Shown one piece after another: positions 2,651 to 36,117 of a DNA stretch of 36,117 nucleotides. The notes beneath the pieces were generated by a model. The model was not told where the DNA came from. It did not search any database and saw nothing but the letters and a program-made list of their open reading frames with translations. The position numbers and the translations under genes are program-made. The number at the start of each line of letters is the position of its first letter. Position 1 is the first letter of the stretch. The DNA is from a virus (taxonomy: Duplodnaviria; Heunggongvirae; Uroviricota; Caudoviricetes): the IMG/VR virus record IMGVR_UViG_2563366924_000002, positions 1 through 36,117 of that record; one strand, 5' to 3'.

Positions 2651-3355
2651 TCACGAACTTTTCAGCCACTCCCTTGCCTCGATGTCATCCAGATGGCGAG
2701 ATTGCTTCAGAATACCAGCCACATACTCCACCTTTGCTACTTGATGATAAGGCAACGTTATTGGCCTGTGGTCTTGGTTGATGCTTGTAAATTGGTATTC
2801 TCCATCTCTGTCATAGCCAAGAACCTTAATCATGTTGTGTCCTTCAACGGTTCTGACAAACACCTCATCACCAGGGAATACTTTGGTGTTAGGCTCAATG
2901 AGTACATATTCTCCTGATTTTATTCTAGGCCACATGCTGTCTCCTTTCACACGAAGGCCAAAGGCATCTGGATCATCGCTATAAATTTTGAGCCACCCAT
3001 CGCGCTCTTCGGTCATCTCGATGGCACCATCAACACCAAGAATTGCCTCACCAACCACGCGCACTAACCCTTTTCTTACCTGACCGACAAAAGTTAAAGA
3101 ATCTGAGCATGATGCAATTGGTGTTACATCATGTACCAAATCAAGCCACCCATTAGGTAACCCAAGTGCGGCTTCAAATTTTCTTGCTAGTTTATCCCCT
3201 ATGTTTCGAGTGCTTTTTTCACCGGAGACTTGCGTGAGTTGAGAAGGGCTAACCCCAAGCTTATCGGCAAAGCTTGCATTAGTGTTACCCGCGATTTTTT
3301 TATGCTCATCTAGCAAAAACGCCAGATTCGATTTGCGAATATCTTTGTTTTCCAT
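2651..3355 (-). CDS. cI: CI-type prophage repressor (N-terminal HTH, C-terminal S24 LexA-like peptidase domain)
   Basis: HTH segment LGVSPSQLTQ; peptidase motif VKGDSMWPRIKSGEYVLIEP; divergent from the cro-like gene across an operator region. Confidence 0.9.
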   Translation of the reverse strand: MENKDIRKSNLAFLLDEHKKIAGNTNASFADKLGVSPSQLTQVSGEKSTRNIGDKLARKFEAALGLPNGWLDLVHDVTPIASCSDSLTFVGQVRKGLVRVVGEAILGVDGAIEMTEERDGWLKIYSDDPDAFGLRVKGDSMWPRIKSGEYVLIEPNTKVFPGDEVFVRTVEGHNMIKVLGYDRDGEYQFTSINQDHRPITLPYHQVAKVEYVAGILKQSRHLDDIEAREWLKSS

Positions 3356-3468: not shown

Positions 3469-3702
3469 ATGAGTAATGAACTACTACGCTGGCGAAAAGA
3501 GGCTTCTAGTGAGGAATGGAAGCGACTCGCCGCATTAGCGAAAACTTCAGTTGGCTATCTTGACCAGATTGCATATGGATTTCGAAGAGCTTCCCCTGAT
3601 AAAGCGAATGCAATCGAAGAAGCTACTCGTAATTTCACGGCCTATAAACCCGTGAAAAAGGAAAACCTGGTGTTCGTATCGCGTAGAGCATCAGCAGCAT
3701 AA
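3469..3702 (+). CDS. Cro-like early repressor (YdaS-type HTH protein)
   Basis: 77 aa, GGAGG ribosome-binding site, first rightward gene after OR; HTH region resembling YdaS from the Rac prophage rather than lambda Cro. Confidence 0.6.
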   Translation: MSNELLRWRKEASSEEWKRLAALAKTSVGYLDQIAYGFRRASPDKANAIEEATRNFTAYKPVKKENLVFVSRRASAA

Positions 3703-3709
3703 GTAACAC

Positions 3710-3755
3710 CGCTCTTTTCACAATGGACATTCGTCCTACGTCGCTGACAAAGCGA
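3710..3755 (+). promoter_or_regulatory. nutR: boxA-like CGCTCTTTT plus boxB hairpin tcgctgacaaagcga
   Basis: boxA-like element at 3710-3718; boxB stem tcgc/gcga with loop tgacaaa at 3741-3755, same loop as nutL boxB. Confidence 0.5.
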
Positions 3756-3840: not shown

Positions 3841-4137
3841 ATGACACAAGCAAGTTACAGCAAGCCAACACAGCGAGAAATTGATCGCGCTGAAACTGAT
3901 TTACTCATCAACCTGTCAACGCTTACCCAGCGCGGTCTGGCAAAGATGATTGGCTGTCATGAATCGAAGATAAGCAGAACGGACTGGAGATTTATTGCTT
4001 CGGTCTTGTGTGCTTTCGGAATGGCATCAGACATCAGTCCGATTAGCAGGGCTTTTAAGTATGCGCTTGATGAAATCACAAAGAAAAAATCCCCGGCCGC
4101 CACCGAGGATTTTAAGCAAATTGATATGCAATTCTGA
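3841..4137 (+). CDS. cII: CII transcriptional activator
   Basis: C-terminus KKKSPAATEDFKQIDMQF closely resembles lambda CII KKRPAATERSEQIQMEF; HTH region; correct position. Confidence 0.85.
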   Translation: MTQASYSKPTQREIDRAETDLLINLSTLTQRGLAKMIGCHESKISRTDWRFIASVLCAFGMASDISPISRAFKYALDEITKKKSPAATEDFKQIDMQF

Positions 4138-4169
4138 GGTAATTACTGGATCAATCCACAGGAGTAATT

Positions 4170-4331
4170 ATGACAAAACGTCGTAAGAAATACCAGGAAA
4201 AAGAAGAGATTCGACACCCTGATTCACCTGAGGGATTAGTGGTAGCCGCAGCAAATAACAGGGCGTTCGCAGAGCGCCTTGTTGGTGTTTACAGACTAGC
4301 CAAAGCAGGAGTGAAACATGGGCGTCGTTAA
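4170..4331 (+). CDS. Small basic hypothetical protein (53 aa)
   Basis: GGAG ribosome-binding site 6 nt upstream of ATG; overlaps the O-like gene start; below the 60-aa track cutoff, found by hand translation. Confidence 0.3.
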   Translation: MTKRRKKYQEKEEIRHPDSPEGLVVAAANNRAFAERLVGVYRLAKAGVKHGRR

Positions 4332-5208
4332 GTTAGCTGATTACAGGCATAACCCTGTACAACATCAGGAGGCATCCAGTATGGGGTATGTCTCTATACA
4401 CCGCCAGTTTATGGACAGCAGGCTCTATAAGGACTCTCAGGCAGTACATCTTTGGCTTCACTTAATCCTCAAGGCTAATCACGAATCTACTGTCGTCAAT
4501 ACGGATATCGGGCCGATAACTGTTGATCGCGGTCAGATGATAACTGGACGCCCGTCGCTGGTCAGAGAAACATTCATCCCCGACAACAAAGTTCGGAGCT
4601 TATTGCGGACTTTTGAGTCGAAAGGGATGCTTAATATTTGCTCGATGGGGAAGAAATTTAGCCTGTTTACAATCGTTAAATATGACGATTTTCAGGCAAA
4701 AAATTGTCCAACGGTTGTCCAACGGTTGTCCAACGCAAACACCAGTAATTGCGCGGCTCTCAGCGGAGATTGTCCAACGGTTGTCCAACGGTTGTCCATA
4801 AACAATAATATAAATAATATCTCTAATACTGACGTATTAGAGAGTGCCACAGCAGACAAAAAGTCTGACAAGAAAAAACCTTCCGTCAGCTGTCAGGATG
4901 TTGTCGATGCTTACCACGAAATCCTTCCTGAAGCGCCAAGAATCCGCGCACTGAATGACAAGCGTAAAAACCAGATCCGAACGTTCTGGCGCAAAGCCGG
5001 AGTGATAACCCGCCAGCTTGACGGGCATGGGTTCACGATGCAGGACTGGAGAAATTATTTGAGCTACGTAGGCGAAAATTGCCGATGGATGTTCGAAGAA
5101 CGCCCAAACCATCAACGCGGAACCGTCTGGCACAAAAAGGGATTTGATTTCCTGCTTAACGACAATACCTACCTGAAAGTTCGTGAGGGTGAACACGATG
5201 ACCGATAA
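4318..5208 (+). CDS. Replication initiation protein (lambda O-like replisome organiser) with the origin inside its coding sequence
   Basis: Position before the helicase; iteron cluster inside the gene; stop overlaps the helicase start. Confidence 0.75.
   Translation: MGVVKLADYRHNPVQHQEASSMGYVSIHRQFMDSRLYKDSQAVHLWLHLILKANHESTVVNTDIGPITVDRGQMITGRPSLVRETFIPDNKVRSLLRTFESKGMLNICSMGKKFSLFTIVKYDDFQAKNCPTVVQRLSNANTSNCAALSGDCPTVVQRLSINNNINNISNTDVLESATADKKSDKKKPSVSCQDVVDAYHEILPEAPRIRALNDKRKNQIRTFWRKAGVITRQLDGHGFTMQDWRNYLSYVGENCRWMFEERPNHQRGTVWHKKGFDFLLNDNTYLKVREGEHDDR
4704..4830. repeat. Origin of replication: two clusters of three direct 11-bp iterons (ttgtccaacgg) followed by an AT-rich stretch
   Basis: ttgtccaacggttgtccaacggttgtccaacg at 4704-4736 and again at 4770-4800; then aacaataatataaataatatctctaatac. 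Confidence 0.75.
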
Positions 5209-6634
5209 TTTTTATGCGCCGCCCCATAGCATCGAGGCTGAGCAGGCGGTGATTGGTGGATTGCTTCTGGATGATGACAGCAGTGAGCGCGTCCAGAAAG
5301 TTCTGGCGATGCTGAAGCCTGATTCATTTTACAGCCGACCACACAAAATCCTTTTCGAAGAAATAACCAGAATGCACCGGGAGCAAAAGCCAGTAGATGG
5401 CCTGACGCTTTTCGATGAACTGGAGCGTAAATCGTTAACGGCGTCTGTTGGCGGTTTTGCTTATATCGCTGAGATCGCAAAGAACACGCCAAGCGCCGCA
5501 AACATCGTTGCCTATGCAATGCAGGTTCGTGAAACCGCAATGGAACGCTACGCCATTAACCGCATGACTGAAGCGACGGAATTGCTCTATTCACGCAACG
5601 GAATGACTGCAACGCAGAAGTACGAAGCTATTCAGGCGATTTTCACGCAACTGACAGACCATGCAAAAACCGGATCGCGTCGCGGCCTTCGCTCATTTGG
5701 TGAGGTCATGGAAGACTGGGTTAGCGACCTTGAGAAGCGATTTGACCCGTCAGGCGAACAACGAGGAATGAGCACAGGGATCCCATCGCTGGACAGGATG
5801 CTGTCACCGAAAGGTCTGGTGAAAGGCTCTCTGTTCGTCATTGGCGCTCGCCCTAAGATGGGGAAAACGACGCTATACAGCCAGATGGCAATCAACTGTG
5901 CGGTGCATGAGAAAAAGCCCGCTCTGATGTTCAGCCTTGAAATGCCAGGTGACCAGATACTGGAAAAACTGGTAGGACAGAAGTCAGGTGTTAACCCGAA
6001 TATTTTTTACCTTCCGGCGACAAATGACGCTGATGACGGCTATCAGGGTGATTACGATGGTGACTTCAACAGGGCGATCGAAACAGCCAATCGCTTGAGT
6101 GAAATCGACCTGCTTTACATCGACGACACGCCGGGATTATCTCTGGCTCAAATCGTCAGCGAAAGCCGTCGAATCAAGCGAGAAAAAGGATGCGTTGGCA
6201 TGATTCTGGTCGATTACCTGACACTAATGACTGCTGAGAAGGCCGATCGCAACGACCTTGCTTACGGCATGATCACCAAAGGATTGAAGAACCTTGCCAA
6301 AGAGCTTGATTGCGTTGTTGTGCTTCTGACACAGCTTAACCGCGCATTGGAAAGCCGAACCAATAAACGCCCATTACCAAGTGACTCGCGCGATACAGGG
6401 CAGATTGAACAGGATTGCGATTATTGGGTTGGGATCCATCGTGAAGGCGCTTTTGATGACAGTGTTCCACCTGGTGAAACCGAACTAATCCTTCGTCTCA
6501 ATCGTCATGGCAATACCGGCACGGTGTATTGCATTCAGGCAAATGGCGCTATTTATGACACAGACCAACAGTCTGCTGAAATGCGCCGACGTGAACGCGA
6601 GGAACCGCAGTCCAAGAAGAAAGGAGGATTCTGA
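5198..6634 (+). CDS. DnaB-family replicative helicase (P22 gp12-like)
   Basis: N-terminus PPHSIEAEQAVIGGLLLD is DnaB-like; Walker A GARPKMGKTT; start taken at MTDNFY, overlapping the O stop. Confidence 0.85.
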   Translation: MTDNFYAPPHSIEAEQAVIGGLLLDDDSSERVQKVLAMLKPDSFYSRPHKILFEEITRMHREQKPVDGLTLFDELERKSLTASVGGFAYIAEIAKNTPSAANIVAYAMQVRETAMERYAINRMTEATELLYSRNGMTATQKYEAIQAIFTQLTDHAKTGSRRGLRSFGEVMEDWVSDLEKRFDPSGEQRGMSTGIPSLDRMLSPKGLVKGSLFVIGARPKMGKTTLYSQMAINCAVHEKKPALMFSLEMPGDQILEKLVGQKSGVNPNIFYLPATNDADDGYQGDYDGDFNRAIETANRLSEIDLLYIDDTPGLSLAQIVSESRRIKREKGCVGMILVDYLTLMTAEKADRNDLAYGMITKGLKNLAKELDCVVVLLTQLNRALESRTNKRPLPSDSRDTGQIEQDCDYWVGIHREGAFDDSVPPGETELILRLNRHGNTGTVYCIQANGAIYDTDQQSAEMRRREREEPQSKKKGGF

Positions 6635-6661
6635 TGACCATCTACATCACTGAGCTTGTAA

Positions 6662-6694
6662 CAGGCCTGCTGGTAATCGCAGGCCTTTTTATTT
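6662..6694 (+). terminator. Rho-independent terminator after the replication genes
   Basis: Hairpin caggcctgc...gcaggcct followed by TTTTTATTT. Confidence 0.55.
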
Positions 6695-6723
6695 GGGGGA
6701 GAGGGAATTGGAGGCTTTAAGAA

Positions 6724-6939
6724 ATGAGTACGATAGCTGAGCTTGTCAGGGCTAATTTTCGTGAAGAGTTGGTGCGTTGGTATCGGTATCGTTCATCGTC
6801 CAGTTTGCCGATTGATGAGTTGTATGAGCATTCACCTGCTGCACGACGCTATCCGCGTGACCGTGTTCTTCGACGGTTGTTCAAACTCAACAATGAGTTT
6901 CAGCGCAACAGAATTATTCGGAGTCTGGATTTAAAGTAA
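6724..6939 (+). CDS. Hypothetical protein (71 aa) at the start of the nin region
   Basis: GGAGG ribosome-binding site upstream; an alternative overlapping frame (6743-6934) is less convincing. Confidence 0.4.
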   Translation: MSTIAELVRANFREELVRWYRYRSSSSLPIDELYEHSPAARRYPRDRVLRRLFKLNNEFQRNRIIRSLDLK

Positions 6940-6949
6940 AGGAGTGAGC

Positions 6950-7156
6950 ATGACAAATCAGCAGCAAATAGAGTTCATCCTTGAGCAGATTCGAAAAATG
7001 CGAGAAAAGAACCAGCCAGACATGATGGAAATATGGAGACGCCAGCAGGAAGAATACCGCAAGCATATTTTTGGTGAGAGAAAACAGGATGACTGGAGCC
7101 TATATGGCTATGGCACCAGGACAAATAAAAACGGATATAGCCTTTACACATATTGA
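6950..7156 (+). CDS. Hypothetical protein (68 aa)
   Basis: AAGGAG ribosome-binding site before the ATG at 6950. Confidence 0.45.
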   Translation: MTNQQQIEFILEQIRKMREKNQPDMMEIWRRQQEEYRKHIFGERKQDDWSLYGYGTRTNKNGYSLYTY

Positions 7157-7164
7157 GGAATTCC

Positions 7165-7575
7165 ATGAAACAGACAATTTTCCTCAGGAGTAAGCAACAA
7201 CAGCAAGCCGCAATCACCGCCATCCTCGCAACACCACTCGATAAAGACAAGCCAGTTACCATCCGCATTACTGACTACAAGCGCAACCTTGACCAGAACG
7301 CAAAATTTCACGCGATGCTGGCGGATATCGCAAGTCAGGTTCAATGGTGCGGCAAATGGTTAAAACCAGAACAATGGAAGGTTTTGTTGATAAGCGGTCA
7401 TGCAGTGGCAACAAAGCAGGAAGCTGATGTTTTGCCCGGCCTTGAAGGCGAATACGTCAACATTCGCGAAAGCAGCGCGCAGATGAGCGTGAAGCGTATG
7501 GCAAGTCTGATCGAGTACACAACAGCATGGGCTATTGGTCAGGGTGTCAGATTTACCGACAGGAGGTACGAATGA
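7165..7575 (+). CDS. ninB: NinB (Orf-family recombination mediator)
   Basis: [31 protein letters not shown] parallels lambda NinB VTIQERNRSLDQNRKLWACLGDVSRQVEW. Confidence 0.85.
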
Positions 7576-7748
7576 GACGACAGCGACGAAGTATCACCGA
7601 CATAATCTGCGAAAACTGCAAATACCTTCCAACGAAACGCTCCAGAAATAAACGCAAGCCAATCCCAAAAGAATCTGACGTAAAAACCTTCAACTACACG
7701 GCTCACCTGTGGGATATCCGGTGGCTAAGACATCGTGCGAGGAAATGA
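7572..7748 (+). CDS. Small basic nin-region protein (58 aa), NinD-like by position
   Basis: GGAGG ribosome-binding site; start overlaps the NinB stop. Confidence 0.4.
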
Positions 7749-8161
7749 CAATGGATTATTCACAGTTAAGTGATTTTGAAATTAACAGACGAGTATGTGA
7801 GGCTTTAGATATGGAGGAGCATTTCTTCATACCTGATGACGAAGCAGACTTCGATTCTGAGCTCCCAACTGACGAAAGAGGTCCTATTTGGCAGACGCAA
7901 AAAAGGGATATTAATGGCTTCCGTTCTTCAAACGGAAATTGCTTCAATCCTTGCAATAATCCTGAATATGCGTGGCCAATTATCACTGAAAACAAAATCA
8001 GCATAATGTTTGATAGTACCGATACGAGATATGAAGGCGAATATCACGAGTGGTGTGATGCGATTTCATCTTGTCAAAAGTTCGGAATTCAGTATCAGTC
8101 TAATCCACTCCGCGCCGCCATGATTGTCTTTCTCATGATGCAGGACGCCAATAATGCTTAG
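7745..8161 (+). CDS. Nin-region protein (NinX / DUF2591-like)
   Basis: ATGA overlap with the upstream gene; N-terminus [15 protein letters not shown] resembles NinX-family proteins from memory. Confidence 0.45.
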
Positions 8162-8330
8162 CCCATCCCAATCCCTTCAATACCAGAAAGAAAGCGTCGA
8201 GCGGGCTTTAACGTGCGCTAACTGCGGCCAGAAGCTGCATGTGCTGGAAGTTCACGTGTGTGAGCACTGCTGCGCAGAACTGATGAGCGATCCGAATAGC
8301 TCAATGTACGAGGAAGAAGACGATGAGTGA
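8154..8330 (+). CDS. ninF: NinF (58 aa zinc-finger protein)
   Basis: Hand translation [58 protein letters not shown], near-identical to lambda NinF as I recall it. Confidence 0.7.
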   Translation: MLSPSQSLQYQKESVERALTCANCGQKLHVLEVHVCEHCCAELMSDPNSSMYEEEDDE

Positions 8331-8535
8331 TTACCTGAAATGGTATCTCTGTTACCGCTGGTTAATTAAGTTTGCTGTAAAAGACTGGATGACAGCGGAT
8401 GCCAACAAACTTAAGCAAAGAAAGGACTATTACTACGCCAGAATGAAGGAAAACTACTGCTCAATTCGCACTCGCATATTTATTAAAAAAGACCTTCAGT
8501 CAATTCTTCAATTGCGAGGGAAGGTAAATGGCTAA
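8323..8535 (+). CDS. Hypothetical nin-region protein (70 aa)
   Basis: Start overlaps the NinF stop; no motif recognised. Confidence 0.45.
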   Translation: MSDYLKWYLCYRWLIKFAVKDWMTADANKLKQRKDYYYARMKENYCSIRTRIFIKKDLQSILQLRGKVNG

Positions 8536-8818
8536 TCTACGCAAAGAAGCACGTGGCAGAGAATGCCAGGTACGTATTTACGGCGTATGCAATGGCAATC
8601 CTGAAACTACAGTTCTGGCACATTACCGGATGGCTGGAATTTGCGGAACGGGAATGAAACCTGACGACCTGATCGGAGCATGGGCTTGTAGCGCGTGTCA
8701 CGATGAAATCGACCGACGCATCCATAATCTCGACAACAAAGACGCCAGACTTTACCACCTCGAAGGCGTGATCAGGACGCAGGCGATACTGCTGAAGGAG
8801 GGGAAGATTAAGTCATGA
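8528..8818 (+). CDS. DUF1364-family protein (YbcO-like, Cys/His-rich)
   Basis: 96 aa with CxVRxxGxC...C..CH pattern; same size and position as ybcO in the DLP12 prophage. Confidence 0.5.
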   Translation: MANLRKEARGRECQVRIYGVCNGNPETTVLAHYRMAGICGTGMKPDDLIGAWACSACHDEIDRRIHNLDNKDARLYHLEGVIRTQAILLKEGKIKS

Positions 8819-9210
8819 AAACCTACCGAATAAAATTGCCGTGGCCTCCTTCAAACAACCGATATTGGCGACACTCAAGAGGGATCCACTACATCAGCGA
8901 CTGGGGGAAGAGATACCGAAAAGAAGTAATCGAAATAATCCAGCAACAACAGCTAGACATCAAAATCACACCTCGCATCAGAATAACCATCCACGCAGCA
9001 CCTCCCGATAACCGCAAACGAGATTTGGACAATCTGCCCAAAGCCGTTTTTGACGCACTCACCAGTGCGGGCTTCTGGCTGGATGACGGTCAGATAGACG
9101 ATATGCGCATCAAGCGCTATCAGGCGATTAAAGGTGGAATGCTTGTGTTGGTTGTGACTGAAACATGCGGGAGTTTGCCAATGATTACAGAGCTACTGGA
9201 GGCCGCATGA
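8815..9210 (+). CDS. rusA: RusA Holliday-junction resolvase
   Basis: Acidic motif NRKRDLDNLPKAVFDALT typical of RusA; about 130 aa. Confidence 0.85.
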   Translation: MKTYRIKLPWPPSNNRYWRHSRGIHYISDWGKRYRKEVIEIIQQQQLDIKITPRIRITIHAAPPDNRKRDLDNLPKAVFDALTSAGFWLDDGQIDDMRIKRYQAIKGGMLVLVVTETCGSLPMITELLEAA

Positions 9211-9413
9211 CGTTCTCAGTAAAAACCATTCCAGACATGCTCGTTGAAGCATACGGAAACCAGACAGAAGTAGCACGCAGACTGAAATGTAGTCGCGGTA
9301 CGGTCAGAAAATACGTTGATGATAAAGACGGGAAAATGCACGCCATCGTCAACGACGTTCTTATGGTTCATCGCGGATGGAGTGAAAGAGATGCGCTATT
9401 ACGAAAGAATTGA
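9207..9413 (+). CDS. ninH: NinH
   Basis: [37 protein letters not shown] matches lambda NinH as recalled; ATGA overlap with rusA. Confidence 0.7.
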
Positions 9414-10059
9414 TGGCAGCAAATACCGAAATATTTGGGTAGTTGGCGATCTGCACGGATGCTACACGAACCTGATGAAAAAACTGGAGACGATAGGATT
9501 CGACACCAAAAAAGACCTGCTTATCTCGGTTGGCGATTTGGTCGATCGCGGTACAGAGAACGTCGAATGCCTGGAATTAATCACATTCCCCTGGTTCAGA
9601 GCTGTACGTGGAAACCATGAGCAAATGATGGTTGATGGCTTATCAGAGCGTGGAAACGTTAATCACTGGCTGTTTAATGGCGGTGGCTGGTTCTTTAATC
9701 TCGATTACGACAAAGAAATTCTGGCTAAAGCTCTTGCCCATAAAGCAGATGAACTTCCGTTAATCATTGAACTGGTGAGCAAAGGTAAAAAATATGTCAT
9801 CTGCCACGCCGATTATCCTTGTGACGAATACGAGTTTGGAAAGCCAGTTGATCATCAGCAGGTAATCTGGAACCGCGAACGAATCAGCAACTCACAAGAC
9901 GGGATCGTAAAAGAAATCAAAGGAGCGGACACGTTCATCTTTGGTCATACGCCAGCAGTGAAACCACTCAAGTTTGCCAACCAGATGTACATCGACACCG
10001 GCGCCGTGTTCTGCGGAAACCTCACGCTGGTAAAGGTGCAAGGCGGTGAACATGCGTAA
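9391..10059 (+). CDS. ninI: Ser/Thr protein phosphatase (lambda NinI-type)
   Basis: Metallophosphatase motifs GDLHG, GDLVDRG, GNHE; near-identical over long stretches to lambda phosphatase as recalled. Confidence 0.9.
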
Positions 10060-33100: not shown

Positions 33101-34026
33101 CCGCCACGCAGATAAACGGCATTACGGCTACGGTGAACGGGCATACCTCAGCCATCACCACTAATGCTCAGGCGATAGCCAACGTTAATGGCGACCTCAG
33201 CGCGATGTATAACATCAAGGTTGGCGTTTCCAGCAACGGTCAGTATTACGCCTCGGGCATGGGGATTGGCGTTGGGAACACGCCGTCAGGCATGCAGTCG
33301 CAGGTTATCTTCCTGGCTGACCGCTTCGCCGTCACCACGGCAGCCGGAAATAGCGTAGCTTTGCCGTTCGTGATCCAGAACGGGCAGACATTCATCCGGG
33401 CCAGCTTCATCCAGGACGGCACCATTGAGAACGCCAAAATCGGCAACTATATCCAGTCCAACAACTATGCAGCTGGTTCTGCTGGCTGGAAGTTGAATAA
33501 AGCTGGAGATGCTGAATTCAACAATGTGACCGTCAGAGGTGTAGTATATGCTAGTGGCGGTAGCTTTACTGGTGAGATCCAAGCAACAAGCGGTAAGTTC
33601 AAAGGAACTGTAGAAGCGCAAAGTTTTATCGGTGATGTATGTAACATGGGTGTTGCTGACGATTTATACGGCGAAGGTAGTACATTTGACATGACGCGTA
33701 CAATCACCTATATGGATACAGCTAATACAACCAAGACCATCACAGTCATGGCTAACATTTCTGGTGTTCCTAACTATCCAGGGTCGTTACTAGGGGTGGA
33801 GATCACCGTGAATGGTGTTACAAAAAGCGCATCCGCAGGTACATCCATTCGGGATTCAGAAAGAGGTATGCTGTCCACGTCTGGTACAGTTATGGCCACT
33901 TTTATAGGTGTTACTTCGGCAACTGTAACTGCAAAAATTGTATTTAAGCAGGGCGCTACTAAAAGATGGCTAAGAAGTCCAACCATGATTGTGACAAGGG
34001 GATCAGGATCATTTAGTTACTCATAA
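30172..34026 (+). CDS. J: Host specificity protein J (central tail fibre)
   Basis: 1284 aa; conserved N-terminal two thirds; compositionally distinct AT-rich C-terminal region. Confidence 0.9.
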   Translation: MTTTIIKGRGKGGSNQTRTPVEAPDSIQSIARAKVLIALGEGEFAGGLDGKNIFLGDSSSYTPLQNADGSYNFNNVKYEFRSGTQDQDYIQGFPGIENELQVSYELKQAVPYVRAVSNTQLSALRIRLGWPTLLLQKNNGDKVGTRVEYAIDLSVDGGPYETVVNGAVDDKTTSLYERSHRVNLPKSSTGWQLRVRRITPDSTSVNIVDTMRVVAVTEIIDAKLRYVNTALLYVEFDAKQFPNGIPQVVCNPKGRIIRVPDTYDPETRTYSGTWEGVFKWAWTDNPAWIYYDIILNERFGLGQRIDATQIDKWELYRIAQYCDQLVPDGKGGSGTEPRFRCNVYIQDRNDAWTVLRDLAGIFRGMTYWGDNKMYVLADMPRDVWHIYNHASVVEGKFTFADPSETTRNTAALVNWSDPANHYKDTPEPVYDSDLAMRFDYRQLEMTAIGCTRQSEANRRGRWALLTNGIGEVVTFSTGMDVPPVGEVIGVAANELAGRTIGGRVSAVNGRNITLDRAADVKAGNRLFLNLPSGTAQARTVQAVNGNTVTVTTPYSETPEAECNWGVDSDDLFIALFRVTGTRDNNDGTFEVTGTTYNPDIYSAVDTGARLDERPVSVIPPGVQAPPGNIVVDSYSTVNQNIAITTMRVAWDAVQGAVAYEAEWRRDSGNWISVPRTSSLGFEVQGIYSGRYLVRVRAVNASDVSSVWSTSPEVNLTGKVGNPPKPVGFIASENVDFGIELNWGFPANTDDTLKTEIQYSLTGTEDDAMLLADVPYPQRKYQQMGLKAGQIFWYRAQLVDRSGNESGYTEWVRGQASIDVSDITDVILEDMKGSDTFKDMIENAVDSNEKIAGMADEIKNHADELEQQAKDILENADGLAQAEVKIDEISVSMDGMTGGVKNSAIAIIQANLAQVATRKTLSASVAGNSANLDRIDEVIANDREATARSLLSLQTDVNGNKASINSLNQTFSDYQQATATQINGITATVNGHTSAITTNAQAIANVNGDLSAMYNIKVGVSSNGQYYASGMGIGVGNTPSGMQSQVIFLADRFAVTTAAGNSVALPFVIQNGQTFIRASFIQDGTIENAKIGNYIQSNNYAAGSAGWKLNKAGDAEFNNVTVRGVVYASGGSFTGEIQATSGKFKGTVEAQSFIGDVCNMGVADDLYGEGSTFDMTRTITYMDTANTTKTITVMANISGVPNYPGSLLGVEITVNGVTKSASAGTSIRDSERGMLSTSGTVMATFIGVTSATVTAKIVFKQGATKRWLRSPTMIVTRGSGSFSYS

Positions 34027-34029
34027 AAT

Positions 34030-34058
34030 AAGGGCCTTATGGCCCTTATTTATTATTT
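34030..34058 (+). terminator. Hairpin plus AT-rich run after J
   Basis: aagggccttatggccctt followed by ATTTATTATTT. Confidence 0.45.
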
Positions 34059-34317
34059 ACAACCTTCAGACCAACCAACACGGTTCATAGCTGGTGAGCA
34101 ATCAGGTTTAACTTTTTTACCTTTCATCCACTCAGCTTTAGCTTTACCAGCGGTAGTGCCTTCATAGATGGCAGTCTGGTGCTCAATATTAATGCCCACC
34201 TAGTGATGAACCACCGGCTCCACCATTACCTGGGCCACCAGTACCACTGGAATGACCAGTTGCATAAGCAAAAGTAGCAGTCATAGAAAGAATAATGGCG
34301 CAGATTAAAGTCTTCAT
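34053..34317 (-). pseudogene. Small secreted Gly-rich protein gene, apparently disrupted by a frameshift (two consecutive frames)
   Basis: Minus-strand AGGAG ribosome-binding site and ATG at 34317; signal peptide MKTLICAIILSMTATFAYA; stop at 34189; adjacent frame continues open to 34053. Confidence 0.35.
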
Positions 34318-34397
34318 TTCGAACTCCTTTATGTTTGTGTGTAACAACTATATAGGGATATAATTTAAGATGTAAACCCCGATCTTATATAAGGGCA

Positions 34398-34505
34398 CAA
34401 CTCATGGCAATTCGTTTACAAGGTATTTTAGTTGATGGATTGAATAAACCAATCGTCAACGCAAACGTCTTCTTACTTGCACGAAGCCATTCATTTTTGA
34501 TGGGA
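34398..34505 (+). pseudogene. Remnant of a side tail fibre (Stf-like) N-terminus
   Basis: MAIRLQGILVDGLNKPIVNANVFLLARS parallels the Stf N-terminus MAVKISGVLKDGTGKPVQNCTIQLKAR as recalled; frame collapses after 35 codons. Confidence 0.4.
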
Positions 34506-34827
34506 CAATAAATATCGCCAATGCGAACCTGAATATTGGTGATGAATTTTGCCAGATTGTTTATACCGGGGCTAACTGTCGACACGTTGGTGGTTACGGA
34601 AATATTAGGTATAAAGGAATTGTAATGACAGGTGGGAATGTCATAGCGGAAAGGAATAAAGTAGTCGGCAATTATTATTTGGGTGGGTGGTCAATGGCAT
34701 TTGATACAACTATAGCTATGCCAACACTGGCGTTGCCCAACATGTATTAAAAACCAATTCAGAAATTATTTCTGGTGATGGTTATATACCTCTCCGGGAT
34801 TCATGTTGTCTAAATTTAGGAGTTGTT

Positions 34828-35655
34828 ATGATTTATAGCACCGGAACTATCTCTATTAACGGAAATACCGCAACCGGCTCCGGTACAAACTGGACTGCAC
34901 CGGCCAGCCAGGTTCGCGCTGGCCAGACGATTATTGTCATGTCTAACCCGGTTCAGATGTTCCAGATTTCATCCGTGAATAGCGCCACGTCAATGACGGT
35001 AACGCCTGCTGCATCACCGGCGCTGAGCGGCCAGAAGTACGGCATTCTGGTATCAGACAATATCTCGGTTGATGGGCTGGCGCTGGCCATGTCGCAGCTT
35101 ATCAAGGAGTATGACGAGAATATTGGTGCGTGGGAGACGTTCGCCACAACCTCAGCCAACCAGAACATTACCGTTACGATCAATGGCACCAGTTTATCAA
35201 TCCCAGCTCTTGGGAAATTACTGCAGAAGGGGAGCAACGGAGCTTTGCCGGTTAATCAAGGTGGTACCGGCGCAACGAATGCCGCAGACGCTCGCACAAA
35301 CCTTGGTTTGGGAGAAGCGGCTAAAAGGAATGTAGGGACAGGGGCGAATCAGATACCTGATATGGGTAGCTTCACGCTTTCTGTTTCAGGTACTGGATAT
35401 CAAAAATTACCATCAGGTTTTATTCTTCAGTGGGGCTCAATCGGCGCACCAGGCATTGCACAGGATGTAGTAACCCATTTCCCGATTGCATTTCCAAACA
35501 GATGTCTGCGTGTTTTGGTCTCACAAGACTACACACCAGATAGCGGGGCTGTTGGTTATATTGCCTGTGTAGGTTTTAGTCCCGACCCGGTTAAATTTAT
35601 ATCCAGAGCCTGTATTCCTGGCCTCGGCGCTTCATTTTTAGCGTTAGGCTGTTAA
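34828..35655 (+). CDS. Tail fibre protein (short, 275 aa)
   Basis: Ser/Thr/Gly-rich; followed by a tail fibre assembly gene. Confidence 0.65.
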
Positions 35656-35676: not shown

Positions 35677-36117
35677 ATGAATTACATATATTCCGCGACT
35701 ACAAACTCTTTCTATCCGCTGGAGATGAAAGAGGATTACACTCAAGCTGACTCATGGCCAGATGATGCTGTTGAAGTTGATGAGCAAGTGTATATTGAGT
35801 TTTCCGGATTACCGCCGAAAGGAAAAATCCGTATCGCTGGAGAAAATGGTTTTCCTGCATGGTCTGAAATTCCACCACCAACACATGAGGAACAAATTGC
35901 TGCAGCCGAACTGGAAAAGCAGCAACTGATTAATCAGGCCAACGATTATATGAACAGTAAACAATGGCCTGGTAAAGCGGCTATTGGCCGGCTGAAAGGT
36001 GAGGAACTGGCGCAATATAATTTGTGGCTGGATTATCTGGACGCACTGGAACTGGTCGATACTTCCGGTGCGCCAGATATTGAATGGCCTACGCCTCCGG
36101 CAGTTCAGGCCAGATAA
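35677..36117 (+). CDS. tfa: Tail fibre assembly protein (Tfa-like chaperone)
   Basis: 146 aa; N-terminal region typical of Tfa-family chaperones; directly downstream of the tail fibre gene. Confidence 0.75.
   Translation: MNYIYSATTNSFYPLEMKEDYTQADSWPDDAVEVDEQVYIEFSGLPPKGKIRIAGENGFPAWSEIPPPTHEEQIAAAELEKQQLINQANDYMNSKQWPGKAAIGRLKGEELAQYNLWLDYLDALELVDTSGAPDIEWPTPPAVQAR

Follow-up and report, generated by a model that had tools for sequence, protein, structure and literature searches.

In the side tail fibre protein (Stf) of lambda and Ur-lambda, residues 1-91 form a collar domain by which the fibre is clamped onto the tip of the tail (PMC12617516). Lambda Stf and StfR of the Rac prophage belong to the same phage_tail_N collar family as the long side fibre of the Nonagvirus phages 9g, JenK1, and HdK1; in 9g gp70 (1211 aa), Pfam phage_tail_N (PF08400) covers residues 1-131 (E 3.8e-22). 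Conservation of the lateral fibre gene among small siphoviruses is confined to its extreme 5' end (PMC8594841), and the region just 3' of gpJ is a variable RBP and superinfection-exclusion locus (Maffei et al. 2021, PMC8594841). Mosaic joints occur in lambdoid tail-fibre regions (e.g., De Paepe et al. 2014, PMC3945230), where recombination with other phages and prophages is known.

Another occupant of this region is DUF6453, a family of proteins of ~320 aa annotated 'membrane protein' (SPN3UB gp38, Shigella phage Shfl1 p51). In Salmonella phage SPN3UB, a full-length DUF6453 gene (gp38, ~320 aa) is flanked directly by J and the fibre gene, and in T1-like phages such as Shfl1 it adjoins J; to judge from position, DUF6453 would occupy the RBP locus 3' of gpJ. 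We found one incidental mention of DUF6453 in the literature. The undetected RBPs downstream of J in a 2025 paper are other, smaller proteins (PMC12309495).

We analyzed a stretch of viral DNA of 36,117 nucleotides (hereafter, the window), which is the genome or prophage of a lambdoid temperate siphovirus resembling HK97 and mEp235, with head and tail genes ~90% identical to those of mEp235, HK97, HK446, and others. Its fibre locus resembles several known systems in part. With the Nonagvirus side fibre it shares the first 28 codons, the 56-bp leader, the small gene, and the position 3' of J, but it keeps only 28 of ~1200 codons, the rest being foreign and the collar incomplete. With DUF6453 members it shares the last ~87 residues, which end in P-N-M-Y, and the slot between J and a fibre gene with an N-terminus of the HK97 / SPN3UB gp39 kind, but the start codon and the first ~232 codons are missing. 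With the HK97 Stf group it shares the N-terminal 163 residues, the 80-bp spacer, the following Tfa, and the size class, whereas the C-terminal receptor-binding part is a Collar domain in HK97 Stf and Gp53-like_C in the window. This block structure matches the pattern of a conserved 5' end within a variable locus seen in small siphoviruses. As in the window, a side tail fibre gene is disrupted in the lambdoid phage lambda PaPa (orf-401 / orf-314); there, however, a 1-base frameshift affects one gene, whereas the window has two unrelated fragments and another, complete fibre gene.

Features of the fibre locus

The fragments, hereafter the scars, lie at the right end of the late operon, 3' of J (Table 1). 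Homologues of J are annotated J or tail tip protein in HK97, mEp235, and relatives, and DUF1983 or TipJ in E. coli relatives. A hairpin of the same architecture as that following J in the window occurs at the matching position in HdK1 and 9g. The stop codon of tfa is the last codon of the window. A search of six products against NCBIfam returned no match, and an Rfam scan of 33900-35000 returned nothing meaningful. A promoter scan found 4 sites, versus 3.1 +/- 1.7 in shuffled sequences; because this count is no higher than in shuffles, a separate promoter for the fibre gene cannot be claimed.

Table 1. Features of the window from J to its right end
Feature	Position	Strand	Remark
J, central tail fibre / host specificity protein, 1284 aa	30172..34026	+	start of fibre locus
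Terminator-like hairpin between J and convergent small gene	34026..34051	.	11-pair stem, then T run
Small secreted-protein gene, HdK1 type (phrog_2243), pseudogene in window	34053..34347	-	
Intergenic leader 5' of stf start	34348..34403	+	56/56 bases as in HdK1
stf 5' remnant, collar (phage_tail_N) codons 1-28 of long lambda/9g-type gene	34404..34487	+	
DUF6453 3' remnant, last ~87 codons and stop	34488..34750	+	-1 frame relative to stf stub
Spacer with fibre-gene ribosome-binding site, common to HK97	34751..34827	+	
Intact side tail fibre gene, HK97 type, 275 aa	34828..35655	+	Pfam and PHROG matches
Probable Din-family serine invertase crossover site inside fibre gene	35291..35316	.	
Tfa, tail fibre assembly chaperone, 146 aa	35677..36117	+	Caudo_TAP

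Sequence on either side of the joint

The 35-codon ORF at 34404-34511 reads MAIRLQGILVDGLNKPIVNANVFLLARSHSFLMGQ. When its first 28 residues were searched by tblastn against 2.3 Gb of phage DNA, the long tail fibre starts of HdK1 (28/28), JenK1, and 9g (27/28 each) were recovered at 96-100% identity (E 1e-10 to 1e-9). At the DNA level, these codons agree with HdK1 in 83/84 bases and with 9g in 81/84. More distantly, 13/30 residues are identical to the lambda Stf N-terminus (orf-401; pairwise E 8e-8), and hits to tail fibre families in PHROG cover positions 1-30 (E 7e-6). The 35-aa ORF alone scored 14 bits against PF08400 (E 0.053), below the cut-off of 26.6, because it is too short to pass by itself. 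The first-pass annotation had proposed that this ORF begins like an Stf and had made the proposal depend on nucleotide similarity to stf; the near-identity to HdK1 stf and the tblastn match (E 1e-10) bear out both points. Sequence homology thus identifies the ORF as the beginning of a long gene of the Stf type. The homologous part is codons 1-28; seven foreign codons and a stop codon (34509-34511) come next. The ORF does not run in one frame through a full collar (~91-131 residues), a fibre shaft, and a receptor-binding tip. With 28 residues against a collar of ~91, the stub cannot fix an Stf to the tail.

Upstream of the stub, similarity to HdK1 reaches back to the small reverse gene, the homologous block starting with that gene's stop codon (~34053). 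Across 34053-34487, identity to HdK1 is ~94% in aligned positions (388/405 bases), rising to 139/140 in the last 140 bases (34348-34487), and 34053-34487 is thus a 9g/HdK1-type cassette. The 3' end of J in the window shows no homology to HdK1 and lies outside the cassette. The small gene (PHROG match, E 8.6e-30) is whole in E. coli ET245, where it encodes 102 aa from a TTG; alignments to ET245 and HdK1 place a 14-nt deletion near 34192 that splits the window copy into ORFs of 52 aa and 48 aa.

The ~300 bp that follow the stub had been taken for collapsed, stop-rich stf. Between 34512 and 34827, two frames do contain seven stops each, but the frame at -1 to the stub is open from 34448 for 100 codons until the stop at 34748-34750, with no stop before 34748. 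This frame matches the C-terminal end of DUF6453: it scored 74.8 bits against PF20051 (cut-off 25; E 9.6e-21) over profile positions 223-289 of 291, and matched phrog_1265 over positions 244-332 of 332 (E 3.5e-23). In an exhaustive HMMER search, the whole piece aligned with residues 233-321 of proteins that are 321 aa long; it is 45-46% identical to gp38 of the SPN3UB type. A DUF6453 C-terminus in an open frame indicates a second gene fragment rather than a mutated stf, and the view of the stretch as collapsed stf was therefore abandoned. 

The rest of the DUF6453 gene is missing from the window: profile positions before 223 (of ~290 expected, or ~320 aa) are not covered, and the frame contains no ATG, GTG, or TTG start before the ATG at 34625. 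The N-terminal sequence MAIRL... of the stub was considered as DUF6453's own N-terminus and ruled out; full-length members start MPEGILIDYNDGRP or MGQGIYINLNDGRP. The nearest full-length DUF6453 proteins are 46-49% identical, and a search of a representative library found none above 49%. A protein homologue search with the frame yielded only near-identical fragments of 85 aa and 63 aa, a scan of genome contigs gave one spurious Planctomycetota locus, and distant blastn of 34488-34830 against E. coli genomes recovered the same fragment only and no full-length DUF6453 gene. In the absence of a close full-length donor, the joint cannot be reconstructed base by base on its DUF6453 side.

On the stf side, the joint is sharp. 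Identity to HdK1 is 56/56 in the leader and 83/84 in the stub, and drops to 11/33, the random level, past 34487. A fall of this size at a single point marks a breakpoint, not gradual decay, and places it at 34487/34488, where stf codons 1-28 are joined to approximately codon 233 of a DUF6453 gene. Because the DUF6453 part is shifted by one base (-1 frame), the stub ends after its seven foreign codons. Taken together, these findings make it very probable that 34404-34750 is a dead recombination joint between two gene fragments and not a gene.

The arrangement suggests the following course. A DUF6453 gene would have sat just 5' of an HK97-type side tail fibre gene, and one illegitimate crossover would have fused stf codon 28 to approximately codon 233 of DUF6453, out of frame. 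Along with the stf stub would have come the leader upstream of it and the small convergent gene for a secreted protein. The DUF6453 piece has no usable start codon, and both scars would merely be transcribed as leader of the late operon, the working unit being the 275-aa HK97-type Stf, read from its own Shine-Dalgarno sequence, with Tfa as its chaperone.

The 275-aa fibre gene and its candidate crossover site

The first-pass annotation had noted an intact 275-aa fibre gene with a Tfa-like chaperone downstream, and profile searches agreed: the fibre ORF matched Gp53-like_C (E 5.9e-13) and several tail-fibre PHROGs, and the ORF behind it matched Caudo_TAP (PF02413; E 8.4e-38) and phrog_188 (E 1.8e-66). 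The fibre gene consists of a constant part (34828-35317) and an exchangeable C-terminal part (35318-35655) with Gp53-like_C, and is preceded by an AGGAG ribosome-binding site at 34818-34822. Over 34827-35317, DNA identity to stf of HK97, mEp213, phi80, mEp043, HK446, and HK106 is 82-95%; the match to HK97 stf begins at 34747 (87% identity), and in the spacer HK97 and E. coli CX21 are homologous from 34747 onwards at 98-99%. The N-terminal 163 residues and 80 bp upstream are thus common to the window fibre and lambdoid stf genes. Among the phages sharing the constant part, HK97, mEp213, and phi80 are viable, and at 275 aa the window protein stands beside HK97 gp28 (321 aa) and mEp213 Stf (310 aa). 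More distantly related is the N-terminus of SPN3UB gp39, encoded by the gene after DUF6453. The gene had been regarded as a short replacement fibre; by homology it is instead a standard HK97-type Stf, with the same N-terminal 163 residues, and not an unusual short substitute.

An AAACC-NN-GGTTT core was found at 35298-35309, inside the fibre gene. The crossover core AAACCTTGGTTT occurs as a single copy in the window, against 0.05 expected, and lies within CTCGCACAAACCTTGGTTTGGGAGAA (35291-35316), which encodes the residues ..ARTNLGLGE. The protein alignment breaks right after this ARTNLGLGE, the point at which all fibre homologues diverge. The site presumably fits the 26-bp consensus of Din-family (Gin/Cin/Pin/Hin-type) sites. 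In two relatives, the homologous site forms the left arm of an inverted repeat whose partner lies 1.5-1.8 kb downstream, the right arm adjoining a Resolvase+HTH_7 recombinase gene. In the closest E. coli relatives, another tfa and another fibre end with Gp53-like_C, both on the opposite strand, lie before the right arm, and ET245 and EC2001 carry the full set of inverted partner site, alternative fibre end with tfa, and adjacent serine invertase.

The same arrangement is found in the invertible segments of Mu (G/Gin), P1 (C/Cin), and e14 (P/Pin). As there, the crossover site of the window lies inside the fibre gene at the boundary between constant and variable parts, where it encodes ..NLGLGE.., and relatives have an inverted partner, an alternative fibre end with its tfa on the other strand, and a serine invertase. 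The window differs in holding the first site and one orientation only, and in belonging to a lambdoid siphovirus whose fibre is of the HK97 type rather than to a myovirus. Because a Din-invertase site lies inside the fibre gene, the C-terminus is probably switchable by inversion, which would swap the C-terminal receptor-binding part together with its chaperone. Judging from the relatives, the switch would be completed beyond the end of the window (36117). The host-range determinant that works in these prophages is this HK97-type, probably invertible fibre gene that follows the scars, an identity that matters for prophage host-range prediction and for fibre engineering.

Spread of the joint and order of events

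Of 5426 complete E. coli genomes, 37 carry the same joint, every Nissle 1917 assembly among them. In none of the 5426 was its stf start attached to a full-length stf. The island containing the scars (34404-34830) is 97-100% identical among all copies, and its flanks vary: the small reverse gene is 81-100% identical, with the HdK1-type allele of the window in addition, and the constant part of the fibre gene 78-99%. On the simplest reading, we infer a single, fairly recent origin of the joint, with flanks, which have many diverged homologues in other phages, later replaced by homologous recombination.

Two orders of events would lead to this structure, each needing one illegitimate and one homologous crossover. 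In the first, a resident 9g-type long stf was overwritten from codon 29 onwards by the 3' part of DUF6453, an HK97-type stf, and tfa. This is a serious possibility, although we put it somewhat short of even. An intact order of J, convergent small gene, long stf, and tfa exists in 9g, JenK1, and HdK1, and the block at 34053-34487 is contiguous with J as in those phages; against it, the 3' end of the window's J is not homologous to that of HdK1, the stf start is never seen with its full-length gene in the complete E. coli genomes, and the backbone is HK97/mEp235-like, the HK97-type stf being the native partner in such phages. The first-pass proposal that recombination replaced most of an ancestral long stf accordingly survives in part: recombination took place, with a joint after codon 28 and an N-terminal remnant, but a resident long fibre is one of two equally likely starting points.

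The reverse order, to which we assign a chance likewise a little below one half, has a 9g/HdK1-type cassette imported into a J-DUF6453-stf locus, with deletion of the first ~232 DUF6453 codons. The synteny of J, DUF6453, and fibre in temperate phages of the SPN3UB type agrees with it, as does the nativeness of HK97-type stf in this phage group. Moreover, the identical joint has next to it several different versions of the small gene, which are 81-100% identical or of the HdK1 type, and this indicates that the cassette moves. This order is countered by the lack of a known close full-length DUF6453 in E. coli prophages and by the distance from DUF6453 to the fibre gene, which is 10 nt in SPN3UB versus 77 nt in the window.

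Several observations speak against a mere scar. A near-invariant island between variable flanks might equally reflect selective constraint; none of the five inspected copies has lost the open DUF6453 frame; in most genomes, PGAP calls the piece as an 85-aa CDS with an ATT start; and the best full-length DUF6453 match, at 46-49% identity, is not a close donor. We considered whether the island is functional, either through a -1 frameshift fusing stub and DUF6453 piece (~115 aa) or through an 85-aa (ATT) or 41-aa (ATG 34625) product, for example as a fibre adaptor. Both frames run through 34448-34511, a stretch that contains a T5 run (34494-34498). On inspection of the sequence, however, this overlap held no X XXY YYZ slippery heptamer, the nearest candidate, A TTT TTG, having a mismatch at the first position, and on that ground a programmed -1 frameshift was judged unlikely and rejected. 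Nor is there a canonical start or a convincing Shine-Dalgarno sequence before 34493, and no Rfam match was obtained.

The substitutions in the most diverged copy likewise argue against a functional product: its DUF6453 frame shows five non-synonymous and three synonymous changes, one of which removes the Cys, conserved in SPN3UB, of a YCQIV motif. Small as these counts are, they suit relaxed constraint, and with no more than 8 substitutions an open frame in five copies is expected by chance. In one strain, 730V1, PGAP itself labels the piece a pseudogene with 'missing N-terminus'. E. coli CX21 corresponds to an EC2001-type locus minus a clean deletion of 616 bp, which takes the small gene, the stf stub, and all of the DUF6453 piece except its last 19 bases and leaves the fibre gene intact. 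HK97, a viable phage, has none of the scars and keeps the spacer alone, from 34747 on. The scars are therefore dispensable in nature, and we consider a functional island very unlikely.

Even less credible, indeed close to negligible, is decay in place of a resident long stf into ~300 bp full of stops, its role being taken by a newly acquired short fibre gene; this reading has in its favour that the stub is truly stf and that two of three frames after it are stop-rich with seven stops each, and against it the loss of stf identity at one point, the significant DUF6453 C-terminus in an open frame, and the normal HK97-type character of the 275-aa gene.

A dead joint thus remains the preferred reading, and the joint appears functionless and of single origin. 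The locus is an ordinary case of phage mosaicism, a recombination scar in a prophage tail-fibre locus, which leaves the known picture of how such loci evolve unaltered; its practical value is mainly one of annotation. What Nissle 1917 and about 35 other genomes list as an 85-aa "DUF6453 family protein" starting at ATT is a gene fragment mis-called as a CDS, and the unannotated 35-codon ORF 5' of it is what is left of a long side tail fibre gene. The 435-bp block near-identical to virulent Queuovirinae phages is a small but concrete case of genes passing between virulent and temperate phages at a receptor-recognition locus.

A more speculative idea, which we think doubtful, is that the 84-bp stf start works as a homology anchor for the exchange of flanking modules. 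Temperate lambdoid prophages might then trade a J-proximal small-gene cassette with strictly virulent, DNA-modified Nonagvirus phages on one side and swap fibre modules on the other, a scheme that we also hold to be rather improbable. If true, it would explain why a near-invariant joint is flanked by four or more divergent versions of the upstream gene and by very different fibre alleles, and would be a record of DNA moving recently from one to the other of the virulent and temperate groups.

Uniformity of the scar island and variation around it

Across all 37 E. coli copies, the scar island, in which the start of the side tail fibre gene (the stf stub) is joined out of frame to a DUF6453 fragment, was 97–100% identical. 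By contrast, the genes flanking it were much more varied (81–100% on one side and 78–99% on the other). A uniform island between diverse flanks probably reflects a single origin followed by flank replacement; alternatively, the same contrast could arise if the stf start acts as a recombination anchor.

One of the variable neighbors is a small reverse gene encoding a secreted protein, of which at least four diverged alleles adjoin the same joint in E. coli. The window copy is of the type found in phages HdK1 and JenK1 and is disrupted by a 14-nt deletion near 34192; the gene is unbroken in E. coli ET245 and in HdK1. It occupies the slot downstream of J that in small siphoviruses holds genes for receptor-binding proteins or superinfection exclusion (PMC8594841). 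In E. coli CX21, this gene and the stf stub were lost through a clean deletion that spared just 19 bases of the DUF6453 fragment, and the fibre gene comes almost directly behind J.

Features of the tail fibre locus and of related loci
Feature	Sequence	Positions	Strand	Remark
phrog_2243 gene	window	34053-34347	-	broken
Scar island	window	34404-34830		
DUF6453 fragment	window	34493-34750		
Same	ET245 (L001)	3479-3736		
Same	EC2001 (L002)	3090-3347		
Same	Nissle 1917 (L011)	3006-3263		
Same	730V1 (L010)	3000-3263		pseudogene call
DUF6453 sharing the C-terminal end	Salmonella lambdoid phage (L003)	4323-5282		
Same	T1-like phage (L004)	4329-5285		
Same	window	34736-34750		
Deletion	CX21 (L007)	3935-4100		616 bp, vs EC2001-type locus
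Probable Din-invertase type crossover site	window	35291-35316		within fibre gene; encodes ARTNLGLGE
Partner site, other fibre end plus tfa, and invertase	ET245 (L001)	4284-6484		
Same	EC2001 (L002)	3895-6399		
Long fibre gene	HdK1 (L005)	6001-9667		two overlapping ORFs

DUF6453 and the annotation of the remnants

The DUF6453 proteins of Salmonella lambdoid phages and T1-like phages and the window fragment share the C-terminal end P-(N/D)-M-Y. RefSeq and PHROGs label the family 'membrane protein', the basis for which is not evident; because DUF6453 adjoins J, a role at the tail tip or in receptor binding is suggested. In RefSeq the fragment is annotated as a protein of 85 aa that starts at an ATT codon (WP_219098492.1, with WP_220408889.1 in Nissle 1917); in strain 730V1 the same stretch is marked as a pseudogene that lacks the N-terminus. 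No annotation covers the 35-codon stf stub in ET245, EC2001, 730V1 or the first Nissle record; a few other genomes have an unnamed 'hypothetical protein' at this position.

Fibre genes

Relatives ET245 and EC2001 carry a partner for the probable crossover site, an alternative fibre end accompanied by its tfa, and an invertase; the window stops at 36117, short of all three. In the virulent phage HdK1, the long fibre gene is annotated as two overlapping ORFs, one for a collar part of 111 aa and one for a remainder of 1112 aa; the gene may truly be split, or a sequencing error may have introduced a frameshift.
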